Of a stretch of 64,000 bases of DNA, positions 53,804-64,000 are shown piece by piece. The position numbers and the translations under genes are program-made. This DNA is from an uncultured Sphingomonas sp. (GTDB taxonomy: Bacteria > Pseudomonadota > Alphaproteobacteria > Sphingomonadales > Sphingomonadaceae): assembly GCA_964430865.1 (NCBI GenBank), contig CAYSHL010000001.1, positions 3,946 to 67,945 of the forward strand, read 5' to 3'. Under the pieces are notes generated by a model, which saw only the letters and a program-made list of their open reading frames with translations, searched no databases and was not told the DNA's origin. Within the stretch, counting starts at the first letter, position 1, and every line of letters starts with the position of its first letter.

Positions 53804-54291
53804 AACGGGACGTCGTCGTCGAGGTCGGTGTCGAACGCCGCCGGTTGCGGCCGCGACTGGGTGCGGGTTCCGCCGCCCGAGCCGCCGCCGAAATCGTCGG
53901 CGTAATCGCCGCCGCCGCCGCCGCGCGATCCCCCGCCGCCGCCTTCACGGCTGTCGAGCAGCACCAGCTCGCCGCGGAAATTCTGCAGCACGACCTCGGT
54001 CGAGAATTTCTCGACGCCCGCCTGGTCGGTCCATTTGCGCGTCTGCAGCTGACCTTCGAGATAGACCTTGGAACCCTTGCGCAGATAGTTCTTGGCGACG
54101 CGGCCGAGATTCTCGTTGAAGATCGTCACCCGGTGCCACTCGGTGCGCTCCTGGCGGTTGCCCTCCTTGTCCTTCCAATTCTCCGACGTCGCGACGCGCA
54201 AGTTGACGACCTCGCTTCCGCTGGGCAGCGAGCGCGCCTCCGGGTCCGCTCCCAGATTGCCGACCAGGATCACCTTGTTGACGCCCGCCAT
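53800..54291 (-). CDS. ssb: Single-stranded DNA-binding protein
   Basis: [23 protein letters not shown] tail. Confidence 0.97.
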
Positions 54292-54342
54292 TGCCGCTTC
54301 CTTCCGTGAATTTCGCGCTGTGATGCTTCGATAGAACCGCCC

Positions 54343-56274
54343 TCAAGCGACGGCAAGGCGGCGGCTTTCGCGGCGGTTCCAGGCGAAGCCGAGCAGCAGG
54401 ATGACGAGCGTCGCGGCCTGCGCGGCGAGGCCTTCGAGGGTCGGGTACAAGCCGAGGATTTCGATGCGCGGCGCGGCCGCGACCGGGGTCACTCCGAGCA
54501 GCCCCGCCTCCTGCAACGCCGCGACGCCCTTGCCGGCCAGGACCACCGCCAGCACCGCGATCAGCGCCGAGCTGTAGGCGAAGAATTTGGCGACCGGCAG
54601 CCGCGCACTGAAGCGGAACATGGCGATGGCGACGGCGGCGAGGATCACCAGCCCGGCGGTGCCGCCGGCGATCAGCGCGCCGACATTCCCCTCGGCCGAC
54701 ATGGCGGCGAAGAACAGGATCGTCTCGAACACCTCGCGGTAAACGGCGATGAAGGCGAGCAGGAACAGGAACCAGGCCGAGCGCTTCGACAGCGCCGCCC
54801 CGAGCTTGTCCTTGATGTAGCGCTGCCATTCGCCGGCCTGCGCCTTGCCGTGCATCCAGATGCCGACGAACAGCAGGATCGCCGCGGCGAGCAATGAGCC
54901 GAAGCCTTCGGTCAGCTCGCGGCTGGCGCCGCTGATCGTCAGCAGATGCGTCGCCGCCCACCAGGTGCCGAGACCGGCAACGAGCGCCGCGGCCCAGCCG
55001 TAGTGCACGGTGCGGACCATCTCCGGCCGCTCGGCCTTGCGCAGGAAAGTCAGCATGGCGACGATGATCAGCAGCGCCTCGAGGCCCTCGCGGACCAGGA
55101 TGGTCAGGGCTCCGACGAACGCGGAAGCGGCGCCGGCCTGGCTCGGGGCGAGCGCCCGATCGGCGTCGGCGAACAGAGCGTCGAGCGCTTCGACGCGGAC
55201 GCGGACCTCGTCCACCGGGCGGCCGCCGGCGATCGCCGCGCGAAGTTGCGCCATCGCCTGCTCGACGCGGGCCATCAGGGCGGAGTCGCGCGCGGCGAGT
55301 ATCGGCTCGATCGGCTCGAACCCGTCGAGATAGGCGGACAAGGCCAGTTCGCGGGCGCGGGCGCGGTCGCCGGATTCGTAGGCCGCGAGGCTTTGCTTGA
55401 GCCGCTCGCGAGCCAGCTGCAACGTGCTGCCGCCGGCTGGCGCGACGGCGGCGGCCGGGTTGGAGCGCAGGTACGCCATCACCGCGGCCGCCCGGGCGTC
55501 GCCGATGTCGCGGGCGAGCGCCGCCGGAGTCAGGCTGGCCAGCGCGGCGAGGTCGGGGATGCGCTGGCGGAGCGCCGGGTCGGACTCCCACAGCCGCTTG
55601 CCTTCGCCGGCGAGGCCGGACGGGTAGGCGAAGCGGGAAGAGTGGAAGGCGAGCGCCCATTTGTCCGCCTCGGGCAAGTGGCGGAAGCTGGACATCATCG
55701 TGCCTTCGAGGCCCTGGTCGATCACCTGGTAGAGAGCGAACGGGCTGCGCTCGCCGGCGCGGGCGCGATCGGTGAAGGCGATCGGCGGCGGGTCCATCGC
55801 CTTCGCGACCGGCACGTTGGCGTCACCCTTTGCTCCGTGACAGGACGCGCAATTCTGGGCGTAAAGCGCTGCCCCGCGGGCGAGGTCGGGCGCTTCCGAA
55901 GGCGCCAGCGGCACCGGGTAGGCGGCGAGCAGGGCCGAGGCGAGCGACCGCGCCTGACGGTCGATGGCCTCGGGCGGGGCCTTGCGCGCGATCGACCGCT
56001 GCAACTCGGCGGCGCCCAGCATCAGCCGCGCCTTGGCCGGCCTGGCCGGAAGCGCCTTTAGCCGTTCGCCGACCGAGCCCGAGAATTCGACCATCTCGTC
56101 ATACTCGAGCTGGTTGACGACGCGGCCGCCCTCGACCGCTTCGCGATAATCGACCGCGATGTAGTCGAGCAGCCGCCACGCGGTCTGGGCGTCCTGGGAC
56201 TGGGCGGCCGCCGGCGCCGGGAGCAGGAGCGCCCCAATGGCAAGCAGCAGCAACAAACGTTTGAGCACAGCCAT
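54343..56274 (-). CDS. Cytochrome c-FTR1 iron permease fusion (PbrT-like)
   Basis: CASCH heme motif, REGLE and REVFE motifs. Confidence 0.92.
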   Translation of the reverse strand: MAVLKRLLLLLAIGALLLPAPAAAQSQDAQTAWRLLDYIAVDYREAVEGGRVVNQLEYDEMVEFSGSVGERLKALPARPAKARLMLGAAELQRSIARKAPPEAIDRQARSLASALLAAYPVPLAPSEAPDLARGAALYAQNCASCHGAKGDANVPVAKAMDPPPIAFTDRARAGERSPFALYQVIDQGLEGTMMSSFRHLPEADKWALAFHSSRFAYPSGLAGEGKRLWESDPALRQRIPDLAALASLTPAALARDIGDARAAAVMAYLRSNPAAAVAPAGGSTLQLARERLKQSLAAYESGDRARARELALSAYLDGFEPIEPILAARDSALMARVEQAMAQLRAAIAGGRPVDEVRVRVEALDALFADADRALAPSQAGAASAFVGALTILVREGLEALLIIVAMLTFLRKAERPEMVRTVHYGWAAALVAGLGTWWAATHLLTISGASRELTEGFGSLLAAAILLFVGIWMHGKAQAGEWQRYIKDKLGAALSKRSAWFLFLLAFIAVYREVFETILFFAAMSAEGNVGALIAGGTAGLVILAAVAIAMFRFSARLPVAKFFAYSSALIAVLAVVLAGKGVAALQEAGLLGVTPVAAAPRIEILGLYPTLEGLAAQAATLVILLLGFAWNRRESRRLAVA

Positions 56275-56297
56275 GAGCGGCTGCGGCTAATCTAGTT

Positions 56298-56316
56298 GCA
56301 ACTGATTATCAATAAC
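56298..56316 (-). promoter_or_regulatory. Fur-like box
   Basis: Minus strand GTTATTGATAATCAGTTGC matches GATAATGATAATCATTATC at 14 of 19 positions; upstream of the iron permease. Confidence 0.65.
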
Positions 56317-56329
56317 GATTGACGCGCGC

Positions 56330-56989
56330 TCAGCGCGGTGGATAGCGCAACCGGCCGAGGAACCTCGAGACGCTCAATTGCCGGTCCGAGCCGCGCCATT
56401 GCGCCTTCCATTTCTCGATCTGCATGACGTCGTCGATTCGCCGGTCGAGGAAGCCGGCGGTCTCGGTCCATCCCTCGCTATTGTCGTCGAGCCAGGCCAA
56501 CAGCGTCGACGCGTAGACGCCGCCGAGCATCATCCGCTTGGTATAATGGTTGAAGTCGGTGCTGGTGTCGCCGGCGATGCGCCACATCAAATCGGCGGTT
56601 CGCCAGCCGATGCGCAGTCCGAGCGGCAGATTCTGCGGCATGGCGAGGATGGCGACCCCGCTGCGCACCGCCTCGCGCGCCGGGGCCATGATCTCGAGCC
56701 GCTTCCAGACCAAAGAGCGGATCTTCTCGCGGACCTTCATCGCGGCCAGCCGCTCGGGCGTGAAATGCTCCTCGAGCGCGCGGTCGACCGCCTGGATGTA
56801 GACGTCGACCATGCCCGCCTGGGTCTTGGGCATCGCCAGCCGCGCCTGGTCGCGGTCGATGCCCTGGCTGTCGGCGGCGGTGTCGACCGCGGCTCGGGTC
56901 CAGCCGTCGAACACCGCATTCTCGCCGACCGCGAGCGCGAGCCGGCGGCGCAGCTGCTCGAGCGGAGTCGGATCGTCGGTCGAATCCAT
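56330..56989 (-). CDS. COQ9 family protein
   Basis: FDGWT, D..W..AGDTSTDFNHYTKR, FLDRRIDDVM. Confidence 0.9.
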   Translation of the reverse strand: MDSTDDPTPLEQLRRRLALAVGENAVFDGWTRAAVDTAADSQGIDRDQARLAMPKTQAGMVDVYIQAVDRALEEHFTPERLAAMKVREKIRSLVWKRLEIMAPAREAVRSGVAILAMPQNLPLGLRIGWRTADLMWRIAGDTSTDFNHYTKRMMLGGVYASTLLAWLDDNSEGWTETAGFLDRRIDDVMQIEKWKAQWRGSDRQLSVSRFLGRLRYPPR

Positions 56990-56995
56990 GGCCGG

Positions 56996-57895
56996 CTAGG
57001 TGGGCCGCCGATCCGGCTCGCGCAAGCCCCGCTCGGGGAGCCGCACCAGCACCAGCGCAACCGCGATCGCCCCCGCTCCGAGCCAGTCGAGCGGCGACAG
57101 GGTCTCGCGATAGGCGACCCAGCCGATGAACGCCGAGATCGCCGGCTGGGTGAGCAAGGCGAGGCCGACGACCAGCGGCGGTAGCGCGCCGATCGCATAG
57201 ACCAGCAGCCCCTGCCCCAGCACCTGGCTGCCGAGCGCCAGCAGCAGCACTGGAGTCCAGTCGGCGGGCATCACCTGCTCGCCCAGGGCCAGCGACAGCG
57301 GCAGCAGCATGACCGCTCCGAACGCGCTCGCCAGGAACAGCAAGGGCAGCGCGTCGAGCTGGCCGCGCGCGCGTTCGACCGAGATCAGATAGCCGGTGTA
57401 GAGCAGGCCGGCGGCGAGCGCCCACAAGTCGCCGCGCAGGTGGCGCGCGGACAGCTCGGCACTGCCGCCCATCAGCAGCGCGGCCCCGAGCGCGGCGAGG
57501 ACCAAAGCGGTCGCCTGGATCGGCGACGGCAGCCGGCGCGCCAGCCACAGCCCCCAGGCGGCGAAGGCGAAGCTCGAGATGTTGCCGAACAGCGTCGCGT
57601 TGCCGAGCTTGGTCATGTGGATGCCGGTGTGCCAGGCGGCGAGGTCGGCGGCGAAGAAGAAGGCGGCGAGCAGCGTCAGAGTAACCAGGGCGCGCTTCGG
57701 CCAATGGACCGGCGGGCCGATCACCCGCGCCATCAAGAACAGGAACGGCAGCGCCAGCGCCAGGCGCCAGAACCCCGCGGCGACGGGCCCGACCTCGGCC
57801 AGGCGCACCAGCCACGGCCCGAACGCCAGCGAGCAGCTGCCGATCAGCAGCGCGGCGAACGCGAACGGCTGGGGTTTGGAGTGAGTTGTTTCCAC
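56996..57895 (-). CDS. DMT/EamA family transporter
   Basis: About 10 TM segments, GFWRL, GQGL; GTG start inferred. Confidence 0.88.
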   Translation of the reverse strand: METTHSKPQPFAFAALLIGSCSLAFGPWLVRLAEVGPVAAGFWRLALALPFLFLMARVIGPPVHWPKRALVTLTLLAAFFFAADLAAWHTGIHMTKLGNATLFGNISSFAFAAWGLWLARRLPSPIQATALVLAALGAALLMGGSAELSARHLRGDLWALAAGLLYTGYLISVERARGQLDALPLLFLASAFGAVMLLPLSLALGEQVMPADWTPVLLLALGSQVLGQGLLVYAIGALPPLVVGLALLTQPAISAFIGWVAYRETLSPLDWLGAGAIAVALVLVRLPERGLREPDRRPT

Positions 57896-57900
57896 TATTC

Positions 57901-57985
57901 CGTCATGCTGAACTCGGTTCAGCATCCATGCTGGGGCGCCGCTGCCCTTCCCGAAAATGGACCCTGAAACAAGTTCAGGGTGACG
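57901..57985. repeat. Family C palindromic repeat (CGTC...GACG ends)
   Basis: cgtcatgctgaac-tcg-gttcagcatcca...tggaccctgaaacaagttcagggtgacg. Confidence 0.82.
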
Positions 57986-57987
57986 GC

Positions 57988-58410
57988 TTATGAGGACAAT
58001 CGCCGCTTCAGTTCCAGCAACGCCAGCGCCGCGCGCGCCGCGCCGCCGCCCTTGTCGCCCTGCTTGGGATCGGCGCGGACGATCGCCTGGGCTTCGTCCT
58101 CGACGGTCAGGATGCCGTTGCCGACCGCGAGCCCGTCGAGGGTCAGCGCCATGATCCCGCGCGCGCTTTCGCCGGCGACGATCTCGAAATGAAAGGTCTC
58201 GCCGCGGATCACGACGCCCAGCGCCACATAAGCGTCGAACCGACCGCTCTCGGCCGCCAGCGCGATCGCCGCCGGAAGCTCGAGCGCGCCCGGGACGGTG
58301 ACGGTCTCGTGGTCGTGGCCCGCCGCTTCGATCGCGGCGCGGGCGCCAGCGAGCAGCATATCGTTGAGGTGCGGATAGAAGCGCGCCTCGGCGATCAGGA
58401 CACGCGCCAT
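57988..58410 (-). CDS. ribH: Lumazine synthase
   Basis: [29 protein letters not shown]. Confidence 0.95.
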
Positions 58411-58414
58411 GTTC

Positions 58415-59725
58415 TCAGGCGTCTTCGTCAGGTTCGGGCGGCTTGATCGGGCGTTCTTCGACGATCGCCAGGCCGTAGCCGGACAAAGCGACCGGCGACT
58501 GATGAGTGTTGGTCAGCAGCACCATCTCGTGAATGCCGAGCGCGGCGAGGATCTGGGCGCCAATACCGTAATTGCGAAGCGCGTCGCCGCCCGCTTCGCT
58601 GCTTGCCGGCGGTTTGCCGGAGCGCAGGTCGGTGGCCCGCGACAGCGAGCCGGGCGACGCGGCATGAAGCGCGACGACGACTCCCGCGCCCTCGGCCTCG
58701 ATCATTGCCATCGCTCCGGGCAGCAGGCCCGAGCGCTCGCTGGCCTCGCCGAGCACGTCGGCGAACAGATCGAGGCTGTGCATCCGCACCAGCACCGGCT
58801 TGTCGGGGTCGATGGCGCCGTGGACCATCGCCAGCTGCTCGGCCCCGTTGGCCTTGTCGCGGAAAATCTGCGCCTGCCACTCGGCGCCGCTGCGCGAGGT
58901 GAAGCCGGTCGCCGCGACCGGCTCGACCATATGATCCTTCTTCAGGCGGTAGGCGATGAGGTCGCGGATCGTGCCGATTTTCAAGCCGTGAGCGGCGGCG
59001 AACTGCATCAGATCGTCGAGGCGGGCCATGCCACCGTCCTCGCGCATGATCTCGCAGATCACTCCCGAGGGGTTGAGGCCGGCCAGTCGGGCGACGTCGA
59101 CCGCCGCCTCGGTATGGCCGGCGCGAACCAGCACTCCGCCCGGCTGGGCGACCAGCGGGAAGACGTGGCCGGGCGAGACCAAAGCGTCGGGGCCGTGGCT
59201 GGCGTCGATCGCCACCGCGACGGTGCGGGCGCGGTCGGCGGCGCTGATCCCGGTGGAAATGCCTTCACGCGCCTCGATCGAGACGGTGAAGGCGGTGTTG
59301 TTGCGGCTTCGGTTGTTGCTTGCCATCGGCTGCAGGCCGAGCGCCTCGACGCGCTCCGCGGTCAAGGCGAGGCAGATCAGGCCGCGGCCGTGGCGGGCCA
59401 TGAAGTTGATCGCGTCCGGGGTCGCCATCTGCGCAGGAATCACCAGGTCGCCCTCATTCTCGCGGTCGTCGTCGTCGACCAGGATGAACATCCGGCCGTT
59501 GCGCGCTTCGTCGATGATCGTCTCGGCGCCGACCAGCACATTGGTGTTGCCGCGTTTGAGGAGCTTTTCGAGCCGCCCCAGCGTGTCGGCGGTCGGGTTC
59601 CAGTCGGGCGAGCCCAGCTTGCGCAGCGAATTGGGGTGGAGTCCGGCGGCCCGTGCGAGGCCGGCGCGGCTGACTTCGCCGGTCGCGATGACCGCGCTCA
59701 GCTGCTCGATCAAGGTGGTGCTCAT
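58415..59725 (-). CDS. ribB: DHBP synthase with an N-terminal HTH and a C-terminal degenerate RibA-like domain
   Basis: [39 protein letters not shown]-terminal [23 protein letters not shown]-terminal [14 protein letters not shown] has no cysteines. Confidence 0.93.
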
Positions 59726-59737
59726 TTTTGTCAAAAT

Positions 59738-59755
59738 ATCACATTACAATGTGAT
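59738..59755. promoter_or_regulatory. Perfect palindrome ATCACATT-ac-AATGTGAT in the ribB promoter spacer
   Basis: Minus strand TTGCCA-16 nt-TATTTT-7 nt-ATG, with the palindrome between the -35 and -10. Confidence 0.8.
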
Positions 59756-59768
59756 GGCAAGGAAAAGT

Positions 59769-60386
59769 TTATGCCGTGGAATGTGCGCGGCCGGCAATCA
59801 TCCGCTCAAGGTAGCGGGCGATGACGTCGATCTCGACATTCAACTGTCGCCCCGCGGCAACATTGTCGAACGTCGTGATCCGGGCGGTGTGGGGAATGAT
59901 GTTGACCGAGAAATGGGTCGATCCATCCTCGGCCTCGCGGACGTCGTTGACGGTCAGCGACACTCCATCGAGCGCGATCGAGCCTTTGGGGGCGATATAT
60001 TGCGCCAGGCCGTCGGGCGCTCGCACTCCAATCCGCGACGAGCCACCCTCGGGGCAGATTCCGATCACCTCGGCAACGCCGTCGACATGGCCGGCGACGA
60101 TGTGGCCGCCGAGCTCGTCACCGACGCGCAGCGAGCGCTCGAGGTTGAGGCGGCTGCCCTCGCTCCACAGGCCGGCGGCGGTGCGCGAGCGGGTTTCGCC
60201 CGACACGTCGACCGCGAACCAGTCGTCGCCCTTGTCGACGATCGTCAGGCAAACCCCCGAGCAGGCGATCGACGCGCCGAGGTCGACGGTGGCCATGTCG
60301 TAGCCGCAGGCGATCGTCACACGCAGGTCGCCGCGCTGCTCGGCGGTTCGGACGGTGCCGATGTCGGTAGTGATGCCGGTGAACAT
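59769..60386 (-). CDS. ribE: Riboflavin synthase (alpha)
   Basis: MFTGI, GASIACSGVCLT, NLER, GGHIV.GHVD, IIPHT. Confidence 0.95.
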   Translation of the reverse strand: MFTGITTDIGTVRTAEQRGDLRVTIACGYDMATVDLGASIACSGVCLTIVDKGDDWFAVDVSGETRSRTAAGLWSEGSRLNLERSLRVGDELGGHIVAGHVDGVAEVIGICPEGGSSRIGVRAPDGLAQYIAPKGSIALDGVSLTVNDVREAEDGSTHFSVNIIPHTARITTFDNVAAGRQLNVEIDVIARYLERMIAGRAHSTA

Positions 60387-60395
60387 GGCCGCGCC

Positions 60396-61382
60396 TTACG
60401 AGTCCCGCACCCGCTCGTAAACTTCGAGCCGGTCGACTCCGAGGGCTCGGCCGTCGCCGGCCCGCCAGCGGCCGTGCGCGCTCGCGATCCCGTCGAGCCC
60501 GACATAGCCGAACGACGACTTGCCCTCGCCGACGATGATCGGCGCCCGGTAGATCAGGATCCGGTCGACGAGATCCTCGGCGAGGAACGCCGTCGCGGTC
60601 GCCGAACCGCCTTCGACCAGCAGGTCGTTGACGTCATGAAGTCGATGGACATCGCCCGGAGAACGCAGGATTTCCCAGCCGTCGACAGCTTCTCCGCGAG
60701 TCAGCAAGGCTCGCCTCGGGGAGCGGTCCTCGAGGCCCGGCAGCCGCACGTCGAGGCGCGGCGTGTCGGCCATGTAGGTGCCGCGGCCGACCAGGATCAT
60801 GTCGGCATGCGCGCGCTCGAGATGGACGTGGGCGCGCGCGTCCTCGCCGGTGATCCATTTGCTCTCGCCCGACGGCATCGCGATCTTGCCGTCGATCGAC
60901 AGCGCCAGCTTCAGAGTCACCCGCGGCCGCCCGAGGCGCAGCCGGGTCAGATAGCCGGCGAGCGACGCCTCTGCCGCCTTGCGCCCTACGCCGAGCTTCA
61001 CCTCGATGCCCGCATCGCGCAGCCGCTTGATGCCCTTGCCGGCCGTGCGCGGGTCGGGGTCCCTGAGCGCGATCGTCACCCGGGCGGGTTTCGCAGCGAC
61101 GAGCAGGTCGACACAGGCCGGGCCGCGCGGGCTGTCGTGAGCGCAGGGTTCGAGGGTCACATAGACATCCGCACCCGCCGCTTGGCGCCCCGCCTGACCG
61201 AGCGCGACGGCCTCGGCATGCGGCCGCCCGCCCGGCTGCGTCGCTCCGCCGCCGACGATTTCACCGCTCGTGACGATTAAGCAGCCGACGTTGGGGTTGG
61301 GCGCCGTCCGCCCGCGCATCGCGTCGCCGAGCGCCACCGCTTCGGCCATGAAGCGCGCCCCATTACCCCGCGCCTTGCTCAC
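60396..61382 (-). CDS. ribD: Riboflavin deaminase/reductase
   Basis: PNPNVGC, PHAE, TLEPCAH...C, KLALSIDG, SKWIT, VEGG. Confidence 0.95.
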   Translation of the reverse strand: MSKARGNGARFMAEAVALGDAMRGRTAPNPNVGCLIVTSGEIVGGGATQPGGRPHAEAVALGQAGRQAAGADVYVTLEPCAHDSPRGPACVDLLVAAKPARVTIALRDPDPRTAGKGIKRLRDAGIEVKLGVGRKAAEASLAGYLTRLRLGRPRVTLKLALSIDGKIAMPSGESKWITGEDARAHVHLERAHADMILVGRGTYMADTPRLDVRLPGLEDRSPRRALLTRGEAVDGWEILRSPGDVHRLHDVNDLLVEGGSATATAFLAEDLVDRILIYRAPIIVGEGKSSFGYVGLDGIASAHGRWRAGDGRALGVDRLEVYERVRDS

Positions 61383-61699
61383 ATCCCGAGCTGTTTCTCG
61401 AGCTTCTGGAACTGCCTCTGGCGCTCCTTCGCCGCCGCCTCTTTCTCGGCCTGGTGCTTCTTCTGCGCGGCGATGATCTCGGCATCGGTGCGGCTCGCCT
61501 TCCACTGCTCGACGTAGATGATCTGGGCCGGCGGCGCGGTGTTGATCTGCGAATCGACGAAGAATTCGATGACGATGATGATCGTCACCAGCACGGCGAG
61601 GGCAGCGCCGATCCAATGCTCGCGCTCGCGGTGGCGGATGAACGCCCGCAAGTCGGCGAACGCGGCGCGCGGGCTGACCGGACTGGGGAACCAGGACAT
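61379..61699 (-). CDS. Small single-TM protein coupled to ribD
   Basis: MSWFPSPVSPRAAFADL, one TM, W...RTDAEI, coiled tail; stop overlaps the ribD GTG. Confidence 0.8.
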   Translation of the reverse strand: MSWFPSPVSPRAAFADLRAFIRHREREHWIGAALAVLVTIIIVIEFFVDSQINTAPPAQIIYVEQWKASRTDAEIIAAQKKHQAEKEAAAKERQRQFQKLEKQLGM

Positions 61700-61744
61700 T
61701 GGTCGAAGATAGGACTGGCGGCCGGGGACCGCTAGTCCGTCATG

Positions 61745-61849
61745 CCCCTCCCCTTGATGGCGAGGGGTTGGGGTGGGGTGGAGTTTCCGGAAAAGCCTGG
61801 GCGGCTTCACCCTCACCCCCACCCTGCCATCCCCCATCGAGGGGGAGGG
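61745..61849. repeat. Family A palindromic repeat (intergenic)
   Basis: cccctccccttgatggcgagggg ... tcccccatcgagggggaggg; collinear with the 22212 copy. Confidence 0.88.
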
Positions 61850-61853
61850 TTTC

Positions 61854-62504
61854 TCAATCGAGCTCGAAGCGCAGCGTGATCACCGTCGCCGAGGCGATCG
61901 TTCGGCCGTCCTCGGTCGCCGGTTTGTAGCGCCAGTGGGCGAGGAGATGGCGGCGGGCGGCGGTCAGGAACGCGGGATCGGCGCGCCCGACCGGCTCGAC
62001 CGCGACCACCCGGCCGCGCGGATCGATCGACAGCCTGAGCCTCAGCACCGCTTCCTCGTCGCTGGCGATCTTCGACGCCGGATAGGGCGGGCGAACGGCG
62101 TGGGGTGGAGTCGCGAAGCGCGGGCCGACGCGCACCGGAGCCGGCGCGGGGGCGATGCGCGGCTCCGGATTGGGCGTCGGACGAATGTCCGGGAGGCTCG
62201 GAATCGGGACAGGCGTCGGGTCGAGCTGGTCGATCGGCGGCTGCGGTACCGGCACGATCGCCTGGGTGCGGGTCACCGTTGATTCCGACGGCTTCGGCTT
62301 GGGCGGCTGCCGGTCCGGCGGCGGCGGTGGCGGCAGTGGGACGAACTTGATCTCGGTCGCATCGCGGATGCGGTCGGGCAGGTCCATTCTCGCGCTCATC
62401 ACCACGGCGATCAGGGCGACGTGGCCGACGATGACGGCGAGCATCAGATGCGGTGCCGCACGGCGCTGGGCGATGGTTCGCCGGTGAGCTGCGTAAGCCA
62501 GCAT
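61854..62504 (-). CDS. Energy transducer TonB family protein
   Basis: TM helix with His, Pro-rich linker, PPYP...V.LRL.ID..G.V ... WRYKPA TonB_C domain. Confidence 0.88.
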   Translation of the reverse strand: MLAYAAHRRTIAQRRAAPHLMLAVIVGHVALIAVVMSARMDLPDRIRDATEIKFVPLPPPPPPDRQPPKPKPSESTVTRTQAIVPVPQPPIDQLDPTPVPIPSLPDIRPTPNPEPRIAPAPAPVRVGPRFATPPHAVRPPYPASKIASDEEAVLRLRLSIDPRGRVVAVEPVGRADPAFLTAARRHLLAHWRYKPATEDGRTIASATVITLRFELD

Positions 62505-62573
62505 GTCGATCTCCTCCAACGCGAGTCGATAACCGGATGTTACATCATATCATGCAACGTCGCAAAGGGTTTT

Positions 62574-62642
62574 CGTCGCCCCAGCGAAAGCTGGGGTCCC
62601 GGGTCAGTTCTCGCTGAGGTGCCCGCTTGCGCTGGCATGACG
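62574..62642. repeat. Family D palindromic repeat (CGTC...GACG ends)
   Basis: cgtcgccccagcgaaagctgggg...cccgcttgcgctggcatgacg. Confidence 0.78.
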
Positions 62643-62646
62643 GGGT

Positions 62647-63966
62647 TTAGCCGTTGGCGGCCGCGGCGAGCCGGGCGATCGCGCGCTCCTTGCCGATGCG
62701 CTTGAGCAGGCCGGCCATCTCCGGCCCGCTGTCGCGGCCGGTCAGGGCGAGGCGCAGCGGGTGGAACAGCGCCTTGCCCTTGAGCCCGGTGCTGGCCTTG
62801 AGCGCCTCGGCGAGCGCGGGCCACGGGTCGGCGGCCCAATCGAGGTCCGCGGCTGTCTCGGCAGCCTTGGCGGCGAGGGCGCGCTCGTTGTCGCCGAGAG
62901 CGGGTGGAGCGATATCGCCGGCGATCACCTGGTGCCATTCGGAAAAGTCCGAAATTCGCTCAAGGTTGCCGCGCAGCAGCTGCCAGTCCTCTTCGCTAGC
63001 GCCGTCCGGGAGCCGGCCGGCGACATCGGCGAATTCGAGCCGGTGGAGTAGCCGGGCGTTGAGCAGCTCGACGTCGTGCAGGTCGAAATGCGCCGGGGCT
63101 CGGCCGAAGTGGCCGAAATCGAAATCCGCGGCGAGCTCGTCGAGGCCGGCGAGCGCCTCGACCGGCCGCGAGGTTCCGAGCCGCGCGAGCAGCGACAGCA
63201 AGGCCATCGGCTCGAGGCCCGCGCCGCGGATCTCCTCGACCCCGATCGAGCCGAGCCGCTTGGACAGCTTGCCTTCGGCGGCAACCAGCAGCGCCTCGTG
63301 CGCGAGCTCGGGCGGCTTGGCTCCAAGCGCGGCGAACATCTGCAGCTGCGCGGCGCTGTTCGACACATGGTCCTCGCCGCGAACGACGTGGGTGATGCCG
63401 AGGTCGATATCGTCGATGACGGAAGGGAGCAAATACAGCCAGCTGCCGTCCTCGCGGCGGACCACCGGATCGGACAGCAGCTTCGGATCGAACCGCTGCG
63501 GCCCGCGGACCAGGTCGGTCCACTCGATCGGCGCGTCATGGTCGAGCCGGAAGCGCCAGTGCGGCGGCCGCCCGTCCGGCGCCAGCGCGTCGGCGGGCTT
63601 GCGCTCGTAGACTGGCGGCAACCCGCGGCCGAGCAGCACCTTGCGGCGAAGCTCGAGCTCCTCGGGCGTTTCGTAGCAGGCATAGACCCGGCCGGCGTCG
63701 CGCAGCCGCCCGAACTCGCGTTCGTACAGGTCGAACCGCTCCGACTGGCGCACGACCTGGTCCGGAGACAGCCCGAGCCAGTCGAGGTCGTCGCGGATGG
63801 CCCGGTCGAACTCCGCGGTCGAGCGCTCGCGGTCGGTGTCGTCGATCCTCAGCACGAACGTCCCGCCGTGCCGCCGCGCGAACAGCGCATTGTGCAGCGC
63901 GGTGCGGATATTGCCGACGTGCAGCCGCCCGGTCGGCGACGGCGCGAAGCGGGTGACGACGGTCAT
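62647..63966 (-). CDS. gltX: Glutamate--tRNA ligase
   Basis: RFAPSPTG.LHVGN, LRIDDTD, THVVRGEDH, KLSKR. Confidence 0.95.
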   Translation of the reverse strand: MTVVTRFAPSPTGRLHVGNIRTALHNALFARRHGGTFVLRIDDTDRERSTAEFDRAIRDDLDWLGLSPDQVVRQSERFDLYEREFGRLRDAGRVYACYETPEELELRRKVLLGRGLPPVYERKPADALAPDGRPPHWRFRLDHDAPIEWTDLVRGPQRFDPKLLSDPVVRREDGSWLYLLPSVIDDIDLGITHVVRGEDHVSNSAAQLQMFAALGAKPPELAHEALLVAAEGKLSKRLGSIGVEEIRGAGLEPMALLSLLARLGTSRPVEALAGLDELAADFDFGHFGRAPAHFDLHDVELLNARLLHRLEFADVAGRLPDGASEEDWQLLRGNLERISDFSEWHQVIAGDIAPPALGDNERALAAKAAETAADLDWAADPWPALAEALKASTGLKGKALFHPLRLALTGRDSGPEMAGLLKRIGKERAIARLAAAANG

Positions 63967-64000
63967 TTGGGGCCAGTGTGAAAGAAGTTGGTGATCGGGT

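Follow-up and report, generated by a model that had tools for sequence, protein, structure and literature searches.

Can an enzyme of riboflavin synthesis also be the repressor of its own gene? The question is raised by a locus in a 64,000-nucleotide stretch of DNA from an uncultured Sphingomonas sp. (assembly GCA_964430865.1, contig CAYSHL010000001.1; the whole stretch is hereafter called the window). A preliminary description of this DNA had reported a DHBP synthase (RibB) with an N-terminal helix-turn-helix (HTH) extension and a palindrome within the promoter of the same gene, and had proposed ligand-tuned autorepression in place of a riboswitch. Our best explanation, which we hold with a probability of about 85%, is that a captured Cro-type head lets the enzyme bind the palindrome between the predicted -35 and -10 elements and repress ribBX-ribH. 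We infer DNA binding, repression by blocking of the polymerase, and a leaderless transcript.

The protein is a RibBX with an additional N-terminal head

According to open reading frames and Pfam matches, the rib genes of the window follow each other on the minus strand in the order ribD, riboflavin synthase, a 43-nt gap, HTH-ribBX and ribH (Table 1). The 436-aa frame was found to hold an HTH, a DHBP synthase and a RibX domain, in agreement with the extension of about 60 residues reported earlier. Orthologs begin at the equivalent codon. An alternative TTG start at 59734 was rejected; it falls within the predicted -10, and ATG is assigned in 108 of 110 orthologs. The RibB motifs DRENEGD, C118, RAGHTE and CE are invariant among aligned family members, and we take their residues to have the catalytic roles. 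The sole cysteines of the protein are C118 and C224, so the C-terminal RibA-like domain has none; consistently, the mycobacterial RibBA 4i14 motif VHSECLTGDVFGSRRCDC aligns to an 18-residue cysteine-free stretch of this domain, and the loss of the zinc-binding cysteines described earlier is thereby upheld. An intact separate ribA is present elsewhere in the genome (G000:C1:117128-117655; TIGR00505 221 bits, above the cut-off). Given this ribA, the RibB domain and the cysteine-less RibA-like domain, the protein is therefore a RibBX that is extended at its N-terminus by about 60 residues. The RibBX proteins of Acinetobacter (6mnz), Shewanella, Aeromonas and R. palustris have the same RibB and Cys-less RibA-like domain beside a separate ribA, and 6mnz is the best PDB match of our protein (E 1e-82), beginning at residue 67. 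In 81 of 108 fused loci ribH is the next gene after the fused one. The source annotation names that we encountered for fused proteins were DHBP synthase or RibBA only. Two kilobases downstream of the rib genes lies a 643-aa ORF (window 54343-56274, minus strand) that combines a CxxCH motif with a multi-pass membrane region and that we take to resemble cytochrome c-FTR1 iron permease fusions.

Table 1. Features of the HTH-ribBX locus, in positions of the window.
Feature	Position	Strand	Basis
HTH-ribBX gene, 436 aa, ATG at 59725, N-terminus MSTTLIEQ	58415..59725	-	ORF, Pfam/TIGR, ortholog starts
Cro-like HTH head, residues 1-60	59546..59725	-	AlphaFold, structural neighbours, ortholog Pfam/PHROG matches
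Predicted recognition helix GLHPNSLR, residues 28-35	59621..59644	-	Invariance in alignment; role predicted from fold
DHBP synthase (RibB) domain, residues 68-259	58949..59524	-	Pfam PF00926 E 5e-83; TIGR00506 above cut-off
RibX domain (RibA-like, cysteine-free), residues 276-426	58448..58900	-	Pfam GTP_cyclohydro2; TIGR00505 far below cut-off
ribH, lumazine synthase, 4 nt downstream of HTH-ribBX; likely co-transcribed target	57988..58410	-	Pfam DMRL_synthase
Riboflavin synthase (ribE/ribC), upstream neighbour	59769..60386	-	Pfam Lum_binding
ribD, start codon uncertain	60396..61382	-	Pfam RibD_C, dCMP_cyt_deam_1
Operator O1, ATCACA-N6-TGTGAT palindrome ATCACATTACAATGTGAT	59738..59755	.	Sequence, genome scan, ortholog co-occurrence
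Predicted -35 TTGCCA	59755..59760	-	Sigma-70-like scan; TTG there in 61/97 ortholog promoters
Predicted extended -10 TATTTT (predicted leaderless start)	59733..59738	-	Sigma-70-like scan; TA after site in 57/97
Possible remnant half-site GCACAT at O2 position, within last ribE codons	59781..59786	-	Sequence; predicted

The head is predicted to have a lambda-repressor-like fold

AlphaFold modelled the head as an all-helical, strandless domain with a pLDDT of 86.7. Its structural neighbours are mostly lambda-repressor-like. The best is the MuB N-domain (Z 8.4, rmsd 1.7, 61 aligned residues; this Z is modest for a small helical domain), and further ones are the AcrIIA15 HTH (Z 7.0), the restriction-modification (RM) controller C.Kpn2I (6.3) and P22 c2 (5.8). 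A Foldseek search with the head model returned the same families, none at E<=0.001, and when the head profile was searched against PDB sequences, no match fell below E 0.09. Pfam matched residues 1-62 alone only with HTH_26 at E 0.11, below the cut-off. Among 84 orthologous heads, HTH_3 was matched by 24 at E<=0.01 and phrog_8 by 33; the source genome's own head matched neither at E<=0.01. From the model and its neighbours, a lambda-repressor-like fold is predicted for residues 1-60, as the preliminary description had expected. Ten residues (G28, L29, H30, N32, L34, R35, W42, N43, P44 and T48) are invariant in all 84 aligned heads.

The full-length protein model is poor in the RibB loops. The linker that joins head and enzyme is nearly fixed in length: the landmarks on its two sides are 32-33 residues apart in 103 of 107 fused proteins. 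Two fused genes with intact head and operator are frameshifted, one just past the linker (L424, genome G860) and one late in RibX (L425, genome G277); these may be assembly errors or natural variants.

A palindrome fills the spacer of the predicted promoter

We next turn to the sequence before the start codon. The palindrome at O1 has a single match in the window at up to three mismatches (0.05 expected). A scan of the 2.4-Mb genome, which the preliminary description had proposed, found ATCACA-N6-TGTGAT once only, at HTH-ribBX. Twelve nucleotides separate it from the ATG. The promoter TTGCCA-N16-TATTTT with its TG (59760-59733) is the only sigma-70-like match in 57800-62000 (0.2 expected), its -10 is 7 nt (GACAAAA) from the ATG, and the sequence before the ATG contains no Shine-Dalgarno (SD) motif. 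This geometry, including the filling of the spacer by the palindrome, had been described correctly; we add that the palindrome overlaps the last base of the predicted -35 and the first base of the predicted -10.

The layout recurs among the orthologs. A proximal site is present in 97 fused loci, and in 84 of these it starts 27-29 nt before the ATG. An SD-like motif was seen in 9 of the 97. It was more frequent in the unfused loci (45 of 69) and in the remaining 13 fused loci (7), most of which have the site at a greater distance upstream. The scarcity of SD motifs in proximal-site loci fits a leaderless start, as predicted from the sequence. Six loci (L055, L065, L087, L090, L124, L125) combine a distant operator with an SD-like motif, as if a leader had been added. 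In N. aromaticivorans, according to supplement 2 of PMC8407463, ribB has its own start site, listed at NC_007794.1:1639614 on the minus strand with 'caatgt' as the predicted -10, which supports a dedicated ribB promoter. If 'caatgt' is the right arm of the operator, the start lies several bases before the ATG, and the transcript would not be leaderless in the strict sense; the published start may therefore give a short leader rather than none.

Upstream of O1 by about 31 bp, a second site (O2) peaks at -57 to -62 in both the orthologs and the phage Cro loci described below. The O2 half-site was found in 58 of 109 loci, compared with 9 in a control interval. Many loci of one genus (L006, L007, L008, L011, L012, L013 and others) have a hairpin followed by pyrimidines where ribE ends, 28-68 nt before ribB. 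It overlies the O2 position, reads GAAC..GTTCC in 9 of 30 and is absent from the window; it may be a terminator that insulates the ribB promoter.

The palindrome accompanies the head across relatives

To relate site and head we used 179 ribB loci, a non-random set chosen by score and for genus coverage, with 110 fused and 69 unfused genes (51 of the latter within the sphingomonad family and 18 outside). One fused locus (L004, genome G020) is unpublished, as is one genome (G878) of the genus count given further below, and no conclusion rests on either. Within 150 nt upstream, TCACA-N6-TGTGA was present in 91, 106 and 110 of the 110 fused loci at zero, one and two mismatches respectively, and in 0, 0 and 1 of the 69 unfused loci. 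The ortholog comparison that had been suggested, whether the palindrome occurs only with the HTH form, thus came out in favour (110/110 versus 1/69 with two mismatches allowed). The arms of the operator are nearly invariant in the fused loci and its centre is variable. The matches from metagenomes were all fused; 77 of the 78 counted had an upstream matrix score above 10, and two more were cut by contig ends. Three genomes (G245, G262, G012) carry both a fused and an unfused ribBX, and their unfused copies have no site.

In 55 of the 57 unfused loci that adjoin ribE, the two genes overlap or are separated by at most 23 nt, which leaves no room for a site, and its absence there is therefore partly trivial. 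For this reason we searched whole genomes. TCACAY-N4-RTGTGA occurred in 30 of 40 HTH-bearing genomes, in 29 cases at ribB, and in 2 of 40 genomes without the HTH; a reversed control pattern occurred in 1 of 80. The search answers the no-room objection only in part. One of the two HTH-less genomes has its exact site 2.8 kb from a prophage Cro, and only 3 of the 40 HTH-bearing genomes have an exact site away from ribB. In the source genome, weaker matrix matches score 15-19 compared with 35 at ribB. The five next-best of them lie in or near unrelated genes and thus indicate no wider regulon there. The second-best (G000:C8:54497, score 19) is near an ORF that looks terminase-like by eye, possibly in a prophage or gene transfer agent region.

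Relatedness was taken into account with a tree of the enzyme part only (156 rows; most rows from the same genus were omitted, as were short rows and a distant paralog). In an unrooted count the fusion label changes 13 times on this tree, and at least 5 of the changes are forced by starred branches. Over five independent pairs the site tracks the head 4.7 times on average and never the opposite (p 0.0625; five pairs cannot reach p<0.05).

The head and its operators were probably captured from a phage Cro locus

The closest stand-alone relatives of the head are Cro genes of 60-120 aa in prophages and viral contigs, facing HTH-S24 (CI) repressors: nine of nine divergent neighbours tested match Peptidase_S24, eight above the cut-off. 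The Cro scans used a tight alignment. Annotated phage records gave two matches. Eight distinct stand-alone Cros carry a GLHPN[TS]L helix. In six of them CACA-N6-TGTG stands at -28 to -30, as a rule preceded by CTTG and accompanied by another site near -61; a seventh has the motif with one mismatch, and in the eighth (L275, helix GLHPNTL) CATA-N6-TATG takes its place. Of four stand-alone Cros with a D-T-T-L-R helix, three have CGCA-N6-TGCG and one has it with one mismatch. Four more stand-alone loci differ in their helices, and their sites are different or not evident. Since helix, operator and distance to the ATG agree with the prophage Cros, the arrangement before ribB is that of the promoter on the Cro side in these phages. 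A phage Cro with its promoter and two operators was thus likely captured by ribB as a unit, to judge from the sequences compared, an origin that the preliminary description had missed. We infer the direction from phage to host, because the stand-alone genes are more widespread and more diverse. A tree of the heads (58 columns) separates fused from stand-alone rows with 2 changes compared with 29 when shuffled; the separation is weakly supported, and five stand-alone rows are nested among the fused ones.

As in the lambdoid Cro/PR-OR region, where a small HTH gene faces an HTH-S24 repressor, two operators are about 31 bp apart and a TTG precedes the proximal one, and helix and operator core are the same. 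By contrast, HTH-RibBX has no CI partner, its O2 is often a half-site only, and its head is fused in frame to a host enzyme. The fused head would therefore work like Cro without being a Cro gene, and its binding to the operator is predicted.

In lambdoid phages CI binds the same operators as Cro, and the match between helix and operator may therefore be driven by CI. This also invites the reading that a separate trans-acting regulator occupies the palindrome at ribB, with the fused head doing something else or nothing; the weaker matrix matches in the source genome (15-19 versus 35) would be in line with it. We consider it very improbable. Hardly any HTH-less genome has the site, which in HTH-bearing genomes is mostly single; tblastn with 11 CI heads found no CI-head homolog in the source genome, the helix of the head is invariant, and the next-best sites are at unrelated genes.

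Some XRE proteins of lambda-repressor-like fold activate transcription, such as RM controller proteins and CI at PRM. Potential activators of the former kind are among the structural neighbours of the head, which could accordingly bind the site and activate, or tether the enzyme near its own locus. The site, however, extends over all of the predicted spacer and reaches into both hexamers, which is the geometry of a repressor, and the layout matches the phage Cro promoter; there is little chance that activation or tethering is the right account.

The phage relatives suggest one more role. The operator core is found in viral contigs and prophages too, and the head may be kept partly for binding the operators of incoming related phages, biasing or blocking their lysis-lysogeny switch. 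One host with an HTH-less ribB (G178) contains a prophage Cro with the same helix type and matching operators (G178:C1:215372 and L366), and in the same host another exact site lies 2.8 kb from this Cro, like a left operator. Such an operator-matched prophage in an HTH-less host, together with a CATA-variant prophage in an HTH-bearing one (G088), is what interference would lead one to see, but the evidence is anecdotal with only two informative hosts, and the conservation of the host's own site already accounts for selection on the head. We regard this additional role as unlikely. Autorepression by the fused head at its own promoter remains our preferred explanation.

Probable autorepression and its possible ligand

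RibBX is predicted to dimerise through RibB. The dimer would bind O1 within the predicted promoter, bound RibBX would block RNA polymerase, and the expression of ribBX-ribH would thereby be limited. RibB is described as a homodimer in the accessible text of PMC13151069. Our dimer model of residues 1-265 scored 0.58, compared with 0.00 for the best of three controls, with contacts agreeing at 96% or more between runs and pLDDT of at least 87. Of the solved homodimers, 20 of 30 reach the mark for such models, as does 1 of 23 monomers; since RibB dimers have already been solved, the pass may reflect structures known to the predictor. All of the confident interface belongs to RibB and no HTH residue is named in it. 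Of the earlier statement that the dimer presents two HTHs, the usual RibB dimer was therefore recovered in the model, but a confident contact between the HTHs was not. Autorepression through the palindrome, as far as sequences and models reach, is supported by the fold, the co-occurrence, the genome scan and the RibB dimer model; the presentation of two HTHs by the dimer and the replacement of a riboswitch are not supported.

Does the loop respond to a metabolite? Acinetobacter RibBX is reportedly inhibited by FMN. In the accessible text of PMC10012899 and 10.1101/2025.05.05.652280, the activity of RibB is described as restrained by RibX in Shewanella, and probably also in R. palustris. We give about even odds to the proposal that a ligand (FMN, riboflavin, ribulose 5-phosphate or GTP, through RibB or RibX) alters the affinity for DNA. 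Without ligand control, the loop would merely cap the enzyme's own level. This sub-case of our explanation, in which plain Cro autoregulation blind to metabolites sets the level of RibBX and RibH, we hold at somewhat less than an even chance. It is favoured by the short, nearly fixed linker and the dimer model without HTH contact across the dimer, and by L425, where RibX is frameshifted yet head and site are kept; furthermore, no position of the enzyme or of RibX was seen to divide fused from unfused proteins clearly. On the other hand, RibX reportedly restrains RibB elsewhere, and a regulatory module is therefore already present in the protein. That the fusion has persisted over about 80 genera would also be less puzzling if the enzyme passed information to the head.

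The fusion is widespread in a family without a detectable FMN riboswitch

In many bacteria, according to the accessible text of PMC5397151 and PMC13151069, the FMN riboswitch exerts negative feedback on ribB or rib operons. The proposed loop would exert the same negative feedback on rib genes; the riboswitch differs in being an RNA element. No Rfam match was found in 54000-64000, which agrees with the earlier remark that the rib cluster has no FMN riboswitch, and RF00050 was not found in the source genome. Nor was it found in any of 80 relatives (40 HTH-bearing, 40 HTH-less), searched with stricter filters and 35 candidates scored per genome; as a control, the search detected the element in 7 of 14 reference genomes. 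Because HTH-bearing and HTH-less relatives alike have no such element (0/80), the idea that the circuit stands in place of a riboswitch fails, and the fusion represents a gain of control rather than a swap.

The profile of the stand-alone relatives matched 246 of 300 genomes of the sphingomonad family, nine of them weakly or at stand-alone genes; likely about 237 of the 300 hold the fusion, as judged from these profile matches. Across 400 class-wide genomes, strong matches of the head profile in long frames occurred only in the sphingomonad family, and three weaker matches elsewhere in the class were two stand-alone Cro-like genes and one marginal case. The head was not found in the best 18 ribB loci from other families of the order. 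It is present in 183 of 185 genomes of a genus with a member named Novosphingobium, so that tractable hosts are available.

Of 40 ribB loci selected across the class for long open frames, 2 were found to have a different Cro-type head, which neither profile matches. The loci with this second head, all from other Alphaproteobacteria, are L454 (G381:C56), L456 and L466-L472 (family f53). The second head matches HTH_3 or HTH_31, and phrog_35, and aligns to the first head with an hhalign probability of only 49.5. Genes carrying it have a palindrome of their own about 40 nt upstream (TTTAAG-N5-CTTAAA-like), with TCACA-N6-TGTGA upstream in 0 of 8, and their full-length enzyme parts share only about 40% identity with those of the sphingomonads. 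Seven f53 loci have a -10-like TA-N3-T 6-7 nt before the ATG. The ESM Atlas contains a 469-aa HTH_3, RibB and RibA cluster of 52 members, 88% with HTH_3 and most commonly from Vulcanimicrobiota, which is possibly a third fusion.

Tentatively, and at a little under even odds, we suggest that RibB has acquired domesticated phage Cro switches, each with gene, promoter and operator, in at least two independent events, that the enzyme which opens one arm of the riboflavin pathway has thereby become a repressor of its own operon that senses a flavin or a substrate and provides the main transcriptional flavin feedback in most sphingomonads, and that the head may also read phage operators.

Discussion

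BirA, NadR and PutA are likewise single polypeptides that act both as metabolic enzymes and as repressors of the pathways to which they belong; they differ from HTH-RibBX in their enzymes and in their DNA-binding domains. We know of no enzyme-repressor fusion with a traceable phage promoter-operator captured beside the head. Enzyme-repressor fusions as such are thus already known, and it is the traceable phage module and the repeated capture that make HTH-RibBX notable. As far as the accessible literature goes, including recent riboflavin reviews (PMC12542839, PMC13151069), we found no description of an HTH-RibB regulator; papers behind subscription were under-covered, so that absence is not proven. 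In the accessible literature on RibBX from elsewhere, a DNA-binding head, present in HTH-RibBX, goes unmentioned.

The nearest described system, by the accessible text of Rodionova et al. (2017; PMC5397151), is RbkR of Archaea, a CTP-dependent riboflavin kinase with a MarR-like winged HTH, a multi-gene regulon and effects of CTP and FMN. Both systems join a flavin enzyme to an N-terminal DNA-binding domain, have a palindrome upstream of riboflavin genes including ribB, and occur in hosts without FMN riboswitches. Unlike the archaeal riboflavin kinase with its winged HTH and its regulon, however, HTH-RibBX is a bacterial DHBP synthase-RibX with a Cro-like head and mostly a single site at its own promoter. 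We found no riboflavin kinase domain in HTH-RibBX, and its head, modelled as all-helical, has no winged HTH.

The finding offers a candidate answer to how riboflavin synthesis is controlled in a large bacterial family without a detectable FMN riboswitch, and HTH-RibBX would be the bacterial protein counterpart of archaeal RbkR. The second, unrelated capture on the same enzyme suggests that RibB favours such fusions. The sphingomonad fusion is also an unusually legible birth of a regulatory circuit, in which the phage donor module is still visible with its operator spacing intact.
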